DNA from: a virus
Lineage: Duplodnaviria; Heunggongvirae; Uroviricota; Caudoviricetes
DNA length: 52,839 nt
IMG/VR virus record: IMGVR_UViG_2880372215_000003
Direction: 5' to 3' (one strand)
Position numbers: made by a program. Below are positions 12,001 through 15,000 of this stretch, one piece after another. Every line of letters starts with the position of its first letter. Position 1 is the first letter of the stretch.

Positions 12001-15000
12001 CGGAACCAAAAAGCATGCGAGCTCTGCCGTCCGGGGTTGTACCTGCCGTTCACCAGCCGCTGGCGGAAGATAAATCACTACTGCCATTTTTCAGCGATGA
12101 GCGGGTGATCCGTGCTGCGGGTGGCGCTGGTGCACTGTCTGACTGGTTATTACGTCACGTGAAATCCTGCCAGTGGCTACACGGTGATTATCATCACAGC
12201 GAAACCGTCATTCACCGTTACGGTACCGGCGCGATGGTGTTGTGCTGGCACTGCGACAACCAGCTGCGGGAGCAGACATCTGATTCACTGGATCAACTTG
12301 CTCAACAGAATCTGGCCGCCTGGATGATTGACATCATCCGTCACGCAATGAATGGCGCACAGGAGCGTGAATTATCTCTGGCTGAATTATCCTGGTGGGC
12401 GGTCCGCAATCAGGTGGCGGACGCGCTACCGGAAGCGGTATTACGTCGTTCGCTGGGGTTGCGTGCGGAAAAAATCCGCTCCGTATACCGTGAAAGCGAC
12501 ATCATACCGGGAGAACAGACCGCCACCAGCATACTGAAGCAGCGCACAAAAAATATTGCGCTACCGCCTCACACCCACCAGCAACAGAACCCACCACAGG
12601 AAAAGACGGTGGTCAGCATTGCCGTTGATCCGGAGTCTCCGGAATCCTTCATGAAACGACCTAAACGTCGCCGCTGGGTAAATGAGAAATACACACGCTG
12701 GGTAAAGACACAGCCGTGTGCGTGTTGTGGTAAGCCAGCGGACGATCCTCATCATCTGATTGGTCATGGTCAGGGCGGAATGGGAACAAAATCCCACGAT
12801 ATTTTCACGCTACCGCTGTGTCGGGAGCATCACAACGAGCTTCATGCGGATCCGCTGGCGTTCGAAGAAAAGCATGGTTCCCAGGTTGATTTAATTTTTC
12901 GTTTTCTTGATCACGCCTTTGCAACCGGCGTGCTCGGGTAAAAGAGGTTACTGATGCGTATAGAGTTTGTTTTGCCTTACCCGCCGACGGTGAACACCTA
13001 CTGGCGACGTCGTGGCAGCACATATTTTGTATCAAAAGCCGGTGAGCGTTATCGCCGGGATGTGGCACTTATTGTTCGCCAGCAGCGGCTGAAATTAAAC
13101 CTGTCCGGAAGGCTGGTGATAAAGATTATTGCAGAGCCACCGGATAAGCGCCGTCGTGACCTGGACAATATCCTGAAAGCACCACTGGATGTGCTGACGC
13201 ATGCCGGACTTCTCATAGACGACGAGCAGTTTGATGAAATCAATATTGTGCGCGGTCAGCTCGTTCCTGGTGAGCGGCTGGGGATAAAAATCACAGAACT
13301 GGAGTGCGCATGAATAACCACTATTTACAGTTTGTGCGTGAGCAGCTCATTATCGCCACCGCTGATTTGAGTGGGGCAACAAAAGGTCAGCTTGAAGCCT
13401 GGCAGGAGAATGCCATGTTCGATACAGGGCGTTACAGGCGAAAAAAAATCCGGTACCGCGATGAAGTGACTGGAAAAATGATAACGCGGGATAATCCACC
13501 AATCCCGGGAAAGCAATCGCTGGCGAAGGTGACGTCAATTCCTCTGGTCAGTCCGGTTGAGTTTTCGACATCATCGTGGCGGCGGGCTGTTCTGTCTCTT
13601 GAAGAACATCATAAAGCCTGGTTGTTGTGGTGTTACAGCGGGAGTATTTGTTGGGAATATCAGATCGCGATAACACAGTGGGCGTGGAATGAATTTAATA
13701 CTCAATCCGGTACCAGAAAAATTGCAGGGAAAACGCAGGAACGCCTGAAAAAATTAATCTGGCTGGCGGCGCAGGCAGTAAAAGCAGAACTTTTTGGTGG
13801 GGAAGGTTATGAATACAAGGAGCTGGCATTACTGGTGGGAGTGACAACTAAAAACTGGTCCAAAACATTTACTCGTCACTGGGTTGCAATGAAACACATT
13901 TTTCACCGACTGGATAGTGAGGCTTTATTGTTTGTAATGAGAACGCGTTCAAAACAAAAGGCGGCATTTTCAAAGCAAAGTGTTGCAAAAGTAGATTGAA
14001 AGGCATATATTTCATGCAAATCTGATATTTTGCCGATTTTGTACGTGATGGCAAAAGCAAACAAAACCCGCCCACAAGCGGGTTTTTTTGTGCCACTTAT
14101 CTCGGATAGACATGGTGAATGCGCTGGTGGAGGAAGTAAGGGTAATTTTTAACCAGGTGATTCTTGAATGCTTGCAACATTGATTTCGTAACGTTATTAT
14201 CCTGCGCCCGGCCCTTTAGCTCAGTGGTGAGAGCGAGCGACTCATAATCGCCAGGCCGCTGGTTCAAATCCAGCAAGGGCCACCATCACATACCGCCATT
14301 AGCTCATCGGGATAGAACGCCAGCCTTCGAAGCTGGTTTCGCGGGGTTCGAGTCTCCGATGGCGGTCCATTATCGGTATTCTGCGTTTTTAGCTCAGCAG
14401 GACAGAGCAATTGCCTTCTAAGCAATCGGTCACTGGTTCGACTCCAGTACAACGCGCCACACTTATTTTCCCGGCTCGCTTTTGCGGGCCTTTTTTGTAT
14501 CTGCGCCACGCCCGGCACATACCAACCACAGAGCCTTTCGGGGGGGGGGGGAGCTTACGGAGTGGTCAGTGTGACTTTCTCTGTGGGCAGATCGCTCCCG
14601 GGCGTTGGCTCACCCACCCAAAGGAACGTCACGATGTTTGGTATTTTTGGTAAAAAAAGCCCGCAGAGCGGCAACGGAAATTAAAAAGTTTGAAAAACGC
14701 GATCTGGCACAGGTGGTGATTAACGCCGCATACCTGGTGGCCTGTGCAGATGGTGAATGTGAGGCATCCGAGAAAGCGAAGATCGAACAGGTACTGCGTA
14801 ATCAGCCTGCGCTGTCCGCGTTTACGTCAGAAATTAATGCGATTAGCGCAACCATTATCGGTCAGCTGGATACGAACTTTAAAACTGGTCGTCGTGCGGC
14901 GTTACGTGAGATCGAGGATGTGAAACACGATACGCGTGAAGCGGAAGATGTGCTGGATGTGGCGGTGGCCATTGCGGAGGCAGACGGCGAAATTGAGCCG

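Follow-up and report, generated by a model that had tools for sequence, protein, structure and literature searches.

A length-unstable G homopolymer in the untranslated leader of the prophage cargo gene tciA of Escherichia coli O157:H7

The stretch of DNA considered here, referred to as the window (IMG/VR record IMGVR_UViG_2880372215_000003, 52,839 nucleotides), is an Sp12-type lambdoid prophage of Escherichia coli O157:H7, positions 4082-48024 of which match Sp12 of the Sakai strain at 99.4-99.99% identity. In its late region the gene for the antiterminator Q is followed by a cluster of three tRNA genes, an intrinsic-terminator-like hairpin, a conserved GC-rich leader and the cargo gene tciA, which encodes a protein of the TerB family (Table 1). 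Within this leader, 82 nt to the 5'-side of the tciA ATG, lies a run of twelve G. We report that this repeat, which belongs to the untranslated leader of tciA, is real and unstable in length. At a probability of about 0.7, we consider it to be a slippage-prone repeat that was born from a GnT mutational hotspot in a conserved cargo-gene leader and spans G9-G15 in enterohaemorrhagic E. coli (EHEC), its variation being likely near-neutral and its exact length in the window uncertain.

The position of the tciA cassette is the slot that holds stx in the Shiga toxin (Stx)-converting phages, where the order is Q, ileZ-argN-argO, stxAB, nanS-p and the lysis genes. The two arrangements share the same Q-dependent late position after the tRNA genes and a terminator; they differ in that the cargo here is tciA and a DUF3927 small open reading frame (ORF) with a conserved leader of their own, and there is neither a stx gene nor a stx promoter. 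Homology to the Stx2c phages ends at 14507, just past the terminator, and the tract lies approximately 30 nt beyond that mosaic boundary. From the gene order and from established lambdoid biology we infer that the tract is transcribed within a Q-dependent late operon, in which transcription would continue across the tRNAs and the G tract and through tciA.

Table 1. Positions of the features discussed, numbered along the window; 'deletion' denotes a one-base difference from Sakai Sp12
Feature	Position	Strand	Remarks
Late antiterminator Q	13304-13999	+	Phage_antiter_Q (Pfam), 307 bits
PR'-like promoter and tR'-like hairpin	13983-14092		downstream of Q
tRNA cluster: ileZ-type (CAT), tRNA-Arg(TCG), tRNA-Arg(TCT)	14210-14459	+	Sakai annotation ileZ6, argN4, argO6
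Intrinsic-terminator-like hairpin and T run	14473-14496	+	closes the tRNA cluster
Conserved GC-rich leader	14497-14633	+	137 nt, from terminator to tciA start; contains the G run
Conserved 5' flank AACCACAGAGCCTTTC	14524-14539	+	
G12 homopolymer	14540-14551	+	the template of the late transcript reads C12
Hairpin GGTCA-gtg-TGACT	14564-14576		within leader
C-rich partner TCGCTCCCGGG	14592-14602		within leader
GGCTCACCCACCC	14607-14619		beside the Shine-Dalgarno sequence AAGGAA (14621-14626)
tciA	14634-15066	+	TerB family (PF05099)
DUF3927 small ORF	15063-15230	+	overlaps the end of tciA
STnc100-family small RNA	15235-15406		Rfam 93 bits, E 2e-20; flanked by DUF3927 ORF and esterase gene
Second G run	21447-21452	+	G6 in the window, G7 in Sakai and strain 108; one private undercall of the window
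Deletion	14551		G13 to G12
Deletion	15278		C5 to C4
Deletion	15456		T8 to T7
Deletion	18621		G6 to G5
Deletion	21452		G7 to G6
Deletion	27252		G5 to G4
Deletion	27509		G6 to G5
Deletion	39641		T5 to T4

The G run and its length among genomes

The run (in the context ...accacagagcctttc-G12-agcttacggag...) is the sole run of G or C longer than 7 in the window, in which G runs of length 4, 5, 6 and 7 number 158, 39, 6 and 1, respectively. The expectation for an exact G12 is 0.02 per window, taking both strands, and such a run is present in 2 of 100 dinucleotide-preserving shuffles. An earlier, sequence-only reading had placed a homopolymer of eleven G at 14542-14552, between the tRNA cluster and the TerB-like gene; the long homopolymer and its setting both stand, whereas direct counting gives the length and position listed in Table 1. 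That reading offered slipped-strand phase variation or an assembly artefact as explanations for the tract, and a part of each survives the analysis.

The evidence for instability comes from a comparison across complete E. coli genomes, 787 of 5,426 of which were matched with at least 80% coverage by a 341-nt query spanning the tract. For the census of lengths the query was G(n) between two 40-nt flanks, for which one gap lowers the identity below 99% and the top identity band consists of exact matches; the matches came from 770 records, each with at least 80% of this query covered. With identical 40-nt flanks, we find G9 in 18 records, G10 in 105 (O55:H7 DEC5B among them), G11 in 67 (with TW14359 and EC4115), G12 in 32 (strain 108 included), G13 in 33 (with Sakai and Xuzhou21), G14 in 16 (among them two EDL933 assemblies) and G15 in at least one, ATCC 43894. 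The span of G9-G15 is seen over approximately 270 complete O157:H7/O55:H7 genomes, and the prophage of O111:H- carries G14 with one single-nucleotide polymorphism (SNP) in the flank.

Lengths differ even between very close relatives. Strain 86-24 has G12 in two assemblies (CP038408 and CP017249) and G11 in a third (CP017251), for Xuzhou21 one assembly gives G13 and a second G14, strain 3384 (5,438,591 bp) has G12 at the same tract coordinate at which strain 106 (5,438,592 bp) has G13, and FRIK2455 has G9 to the G10 of FRIK2533 and FRIK2069. At the same time both EDL933 assemblies have G14, TW14359 and EC4115 share G11, and five cattle-hide strains all have G10; this coherence within clonal groups argues that the lengths are heritable and not pure sequencing noise. 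The run is uninterrupted and exceeds the length of about 8 that slipping needs, both here, with twelve G, and in the relatives, with nine to fifteen, and of the phase-variation proposal it is this slippage-prone length, set between identical flanks, that is borne out.

The reliability of the count in the window itself can be judged against Sakai Sp12, from which the window differs, outside a recombinant block at 29.0-32.6 kb, by 1 substitution and 8 one-base homopolymer deletions, all eight of which shorten runs in the window (Table 1). For G/C runs the fraction that lost a base is 0/182, 2/38, 2/10, 1/2 and 1/1 at lengths 4, 5, 6, 7 and 13, respectively, and a loss rate that rises with run length is the signature of homopolymer under-calling. 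The best match of window positions 14000-28000, strain 108, extends over 14,007 nt against a query of 14,001 nt with 0 mismatches and six one-base gaps, and the six corresponding deletions (15278, 15456, 18621, 21452, 27252 and 27509) are private to the window assembly among the 5,426 complete genomes. Those at 27252 and 27509 break the portal gene into two ORFs, 26161-27261 and 27521-28738, and the frameshifted genes of the window should be distrusted.

The behaviour of the window assembly thus resembles that known for long-read homopolymer indel errors, in that it departs from its nearest relatives by one-base homopolymer deletions, at a rate rising with length and to the point of splitting the portal gene. 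It differs at the tract, which is real, as is its polymorphism between lineages, G12 being present in 32 other records; with identical flanks it is not private to the window assembly, unlike the six other deletions. The nearest relatives of the window carry G12, G13 or G14, and it is quite possible that the tract is undercalled here by one or more.

That the tract is nothing but an artefact, the true DNA being short and the long run arising from read or consensus errors, might be argued from the systematic homopolymer errors of the window assembly and from the discordant lengths of same-strain assemblies, which are possibly technical. This is effectively refuted by the occurrence of G9-G15 at the site in approximately 270 independent complete genomes obtained with different technologies, Sakai, EDL933, TW14359, EC4115 and Xuzhou21 among the strains that carry the tract. 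The authors of the Xuzhou21 genome, moreover, report a Sanger re-check of questionable homopolymer sites (PMC3338595), the errors of the window are deletions, which shorten runs and do not create them, and short G5TG alleles are consistently called in the same kinds of data. The artefact proposal retains its weaker form only, namely that the length called here is off by one or more.

Two further observations concern the assemblies. A draft contig in IMG/VR (L251, IMGVR_UViG_2695420565_000011) stops 25 nt past a G14 tract and carries a duplicated 'tttcggggggg'; draft assemblies, too, seem to be broken or corrupted by the tract. The segment at 29000-32650, which spans tail genes, has diverged from Sakai Sp12 by 143 mismatches and many indels, while the flanking 40 kb is essentially the same; recombination between prophages seems to have replaced the segment.

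Origin of the long run

A scan of IMG/VR anchored on the invariant 5' flank AACCACAGAGCCTTTC gave 125 anchor matches, approximately 120 of them from IMG/VR contigs. The commonest two alleles are short and contain a T, reading cctttc-A-GGGG-TG-AGC (47/125) and cctttc-GGGGG-TG-AGC (35/125). Alleles without the T, in which G6 or G7 runs directly into AGC, make up 16/125 and have flanks as in the T-containing alleles. Among these matches G12/13 is confined to the O157-type flank, and A+G11 is found in phage Evi and one relative. A scan of genome contigs with a 16-mer anchor returned mostly chance matches, with true leaders at 10 of 120 loci; every copy from Enterobacter, Franconibacter and the other genomes is short and retains the T.

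Scans aimed at long runs revealed T-less alleles in three flank backgrounds. Class A (agcttacggagtgg) holds G6, G7, G8 and G9-G15; class B (agcttacgggatgg) holds A+G6, A+G7, A+G8, A+G9 and A+G10; and class C (agccatagggaacgg) holds A+G6, A+G8 and A+G11, with A+G6+AGC found in both B and C with unchanged flanks. Such ladders of length in three backgrounds imply that the long run is derived and recurrent. The direction of change, from G(4-5)TG to the T-less forms, is suggested by allele frequency and taxonomic spread rather than by a rooted tree.

A mutational basis for the first step is provided by the recent description of G(n)T motifs, at which the rate of T-to-G change is up to more than 1000-fold above baseline and lengthens the G run (Horton et al. 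2025, PMC12344412, in which the hotspots are also attributed to Cherry 2023). A 3' G, the second best base at that position, gives a high rate, and a 5' A is best for G4T (PMC12344412); the present site reads TC-G5T-GA or CA-G4T-GA. The likeness extends to the ancestral G5T and G4T motifs, each with G next, and to the predicted products, GGGGGTG giving GGGGGGG and AGGGGTG giving AGGGGGG. The published work deals with substitution alone, whereas here two G blocks are fused and expansion to 9-15 G follows.

The history that we propose is the following. The ancestral site would have read cctttc-GGGGG-T-G-AGC or cctttc-A-GGGG-T-G-AGC, and replacement of the T by G, or its loss, would have fused the two G blocks into G6 or G7, as the intermediate alleles and the GnT hotspot both suggest. 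The uninterrupted run would then have lengthened stepwise by slipped-strand mispairing, to which the ladders in three backgrounds point, and slippage would have carried it to G9-G15 in the O55:H7/O157:H7/O111 lineage, leaving a tract that is length-polymorphic among near-clonal isolates today. The value of 12 in the window has to be read with the tendency of this assembly to drop one base in G/C runs, which may well extend to the tract.

An origin other than slippage may be envisaged in the IS110-family element ISEc20, for which the tract would be a footprint or landing pad, made or lengthened by register-shifted insertion and excision. ISEc20 has G-run termini, its ends reading GGGGGGTGCCCC... 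and ...GTAACGGGG(G), and in the PPompW prophages one side of it borders 'cctttcG', precisely where the tract starts, and the other side the second G run of Table 1. The 6.9 kb between the two G runs, from tciA to Rz, is missing in these prophages, and the terminase genes lie downstream of the second G run; in a further IMG/VR contig (L253, IMGVR_UViG_2700989487_000002) a G9 tract is bordered by an IS end that differs slightly. One such copy of ISEc20 is at 3162-4620 of the PPompW prophage of Stx2_14040 (L003). Comparison with three other copies of the element identifies GGGGGGTGCC as the end of ISEc20 itself, yet the outer flanks of those three copies are not G runs. The window copy contains no IS, the GnT hotspot accounts for the loss of the T without any IS, and stepwise slippage accounts better than an excision jump for the complete ladder of 6, 7, 8 and so on to 15 in three backgrounds. 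We therefore consider the ISEc20 origin highly unlikely. G runs may be preferred targets of ISEc20; no target information was found in the ISEc20 papers.

The leader RNA and the reading of tract length

The run sits in a conserved and probably structured RNA leader, to judge from an alignment of 40 distinct variants, in which the mean column identity of the leader is 85%, and from modelled folds. Within the leader CCACAGAG (14526-14533) is complementary to CTCTGTGG (14579-14586) and GAGCC (14531-14535) to GGCTC (14607-14611). The models are suggestive of pairing of the G run and the adjoining TGA with the C-rich partner of Table 1 or, alternatively, with GCTCACCC next to the Shine-Dalgarno (SD) sequence. 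In a nested fold the G run and UGA pair with UCGCUCCCGGG (14592-14602), GCUUACGGAG pairs with CUCUGUGGGC and GAGCC with GGCUC, and GGUCA-gug-UGACU forms a hairpin. This fold has 93.5% of its cells paired, against 40-51% with slid partners, and its covariation score is matched by 4/500 shuffles; the base directly 5' of the run and its partner change together (A-U in 15, G-C in 10 and unpaired in 12). In a pseudoknot fold CCACAGAG pairs with CUCUGUGG and GGGUGAGC with GCUCACCC (14608-15) beside the SD. Here 95.5% of cells are paired, with almost no covariation and a score matched by 146/500 shuffles. Over the two folds the slid-partner controls give 38-51% of cells paired.

These values are to be read with the knowledge that AACCACAGAGCCTTTC served as the search anchor, and that its invariance is therefore partly forced. 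Changes on both sides of a pair occur at 2 pairs and 1 pair in the two folds, among related sequences in which one strand is the anchor. RNAalifold, applied to the 40 variants, picked the helix of CCACAGAG and CUCUGUGG, which we set aside, one strand again being the anchor, the invariance of which proves nothing. Single-sequence folding of 14460-14660 gives z = -1.71, which is not significant. At E <=1, Rfam 15 returned no family match in 14497-14633, and over 13900-15600 its matches were tRNAs, STnc100 and weak PR'-RNA-like matches, with none at the tract or leader.

The leader is conserved across Escherichia, Enterobacter and Franconibacter prophages (loci L141, L146, L168, L226, L232, L236, L241 and L246). 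In one of these, on an Enterobacteriaceae contig (L232), it precedes a different gene, which encodes a signal peptide; in this respect it behaves as a portable module. It is a candidate for a cis-regulatory RNA module, as yet undescribed, that would serve cargo genes in the slot equivalent to that of stx. As a working analogy it may be compared with SD-sequestering 5' leaders, with which it would share a conserved GC-rich leader, a G-rich strand that can pair with a C-rich segment 5' of the SD, and alternative pairings; it differs from them in having no Rfam family, no known ligand or signal and weak covariation.

Similarity to small RNAs is seen nearby. Short prophage RNAs (isrK, isrJ and OrzO-P) are weakly matched in Rfam by the region at 13983-14092, which is the short late-leader RNA expected of a lambdoid phage. 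Downstream of tciA, the STnc100-family RNA is followed by a DUF1737-SASA esterase gene and then by the lysis genes, and two of the private deletions of the window fall within the STnc100 match or in the T tail of the STnc100 terminator. A 2026 preprint ties the STnc100 family to the prophage small RNA PasD (bioRxiv 10.64898/2026.05.13.724894). Identification of the leader with PasA or PasC was ruled out by the synteny given in the same preprint, according to which the Pas/STnc100 small RNAs flank the esterase gene.

Whether anything reads the length of the tract is a question on which the surrounding sequence is informative. No real ORF crosses it: we rejected a coding role for the tract, as the sole ORF across it, of 80 codons (14411-14653), begins inside tRNA-Arg. 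A scan of both strands for sigma-70-like promoters over 14201-14853 predicted none, and the leader has no A/T-rich block resembling a -10 element. With neither a real ORF nor a predicted promoter around the tract, both classical architectures of phase variation by simple sequence repeats (SSRs) are absent; the anatomy that the sequence-only reading had implied fails in this respect, and phase variation of the cargo genes by the tract is unsupported.

A comparison may be made with the phase-variable tracts of Neisseria, Haemophilus, Campylobacter and Bordetella (e.g. PMC1891110, PMC5084427). The present tract resembles these contingency loci in being a long G/C mononucleotide run, in its one-base changes between close isolates and in adjoining an accessory, horizontally acquired gene. 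It differs in lying outside an ORF and not between -35 and -10, in having no linked phenotype and in its host, a mismatch-repair-proficient E. coli in which such loci are rare; furthermore, its lengths keep a phylogenetic signal, suggesting slower change than that of classical switches.

A contingency locus of a subtler kind may nevertheless be considered, in which tract length would set the expression of tciA or of the late genes, through the fold of the leader and access to the SD and start or through the passage of polymerase over the C12 template, to give heritable, reversible states. The tract is hypervariable, and the G-run strand of the conserved leader is complementary both to the internal C-rich segment and to GCTCACCC, which abuts the SD. 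In single-sequence thermodynamic models the unpaired probability of the SD is 0.36 for G5UG-G7 and 0.17 for G12 and longer. Long tracts have arisen in each of three backgrounds and have lasted from O55:H7 into O157:H7, and a second homopolymer, A7, occupies the first codons of tciA. Weighed against these points, ORF and promoter spacing are independent of the tract, the predicted effect on SD access is approximately twofold and comes from the model only, and we take it to be small; the lineage-coherent lengths, moreover, speak against switching as fast as in classical phase variation.

The state of tciA bears on the same question. Its ATG stands 7 nt past AAGGAA, a good SD sequence, and an A7 run (14652-14658) shifts the frame such that a stop follows after 16 codons (14634-14684); the long TerB frame is annotated from a TTG at 14638, in the +1 frame (Sakai, PGAP). 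The ATG is out of frame with the TerB domain in the window, in Sakai, in O111, where the gene is annotated as a pseudogene, and, with one exception, in every T-less allele of class A; tciA is in frame in relatives that have A6 or AAAAAGAAAA. Fixation of the frameshift in O157 and O111 excludes an assembly error as its cause. The gene may be in decay, may start at the TTG or may rely on slippage within the A7 run. With tciA already out of frame in the O157 and O111 alleles, fine-tuning of its translation is an unlikely target of selection. The converse idea, that expansion of the tract needs a broken tciA, was rejected, as class B and C alleles from A+G6 to A+G11 have an intact tciA.

On this evidence we hold control of expression by tract length to be unlikely. 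Its most developed form, in which slippage acts as a rheostat that would remodel an undescribed structured leader before TerB-like and other cargo genes, with repeated birth from the GnT hotspot driven by selection, we regard as improbable. The literature on TciA in O157, on ECs2265 and on poly-G in O157 prophages yielded no description of the tract. With no ORF or predicted promoter to read its length, the tract most likely varies in a neutral or near-neutral way; at most, its length may tune how the leader RNA folds, the ancestral GGGG(G)UGA being there a putative strand of a helix.

The tract might alternatively act through its own structure, as a G-quadruplex or another non-B DNA or RNA structure at which replication or transcription would pause, or which would mark a boundary of recombination between phage modules. 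Its place approximately 30 nt inside a mosaic boundary, the Stx2c phages being alike only to 14507, and its role as the end point of the deletion in the PPompW prophages are in keeping with this. A lone G12, however, cannot form a canonical three-tetrad quadruplex, for which four G3 blocks plus loops are required, and the ancestral, commonest alleles have only G4-5 and yet the same module boundary, which indicates that the boundary is independent of the long tract. A structural role of this kind seems to us very improbable.

Weight of the reading and its significance

The reading that we favour, a repeat born at a GnT hotspot, lengthened by slippage and varying with little or no consequence, has several points to contend with. 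The order of events, T-to-G change first and expansion afterwards, is drawn from extant alleles, and G6 could equally have arisen by loss of the T. The run is long (at least 9) from O55:H7 through O157:H7 and has expanded in three backgrounds, for which selection could be responsible instead of mutational bias. For single pairs of assemblies, instability and sequencing error are inseparable, as both rise with run length. G12 is common to 32 records and could be the true length in the window. Lastly, the support for structure in the leader is modest, most pairs being invariant and one helix strand being the search anchor.

For those who work with O157:H7 genomes the tract is of practical consequence. 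Complete genomes disagree by one base at this site, even between assemblies of the same strain, and the site should be masked in outbreak typing by SNPs and indels. It is also a convenient check of the homopolymer accuracy of an assembly, the window assembly being one that fails elsewhere, where it splits the portal gene. More generally, the locus offers a clean natural example of the birth of a long mononucleotide repeat in a genome normally without such repeats, in which a GnT hotspot removes the T and slippage lengthens the run, and the same prophage leader has seen this birth in three sequence backgrounds. If the leader RNA were affected by tract length, the tract would be an unusual and rare SSR-based regulator in E. 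coli, at the position that stx occupies in the Stx phages; and were it to act as a rheostat, it would provide heritable, reversible levels of cargo or late-gene expression in EHEC prophages.

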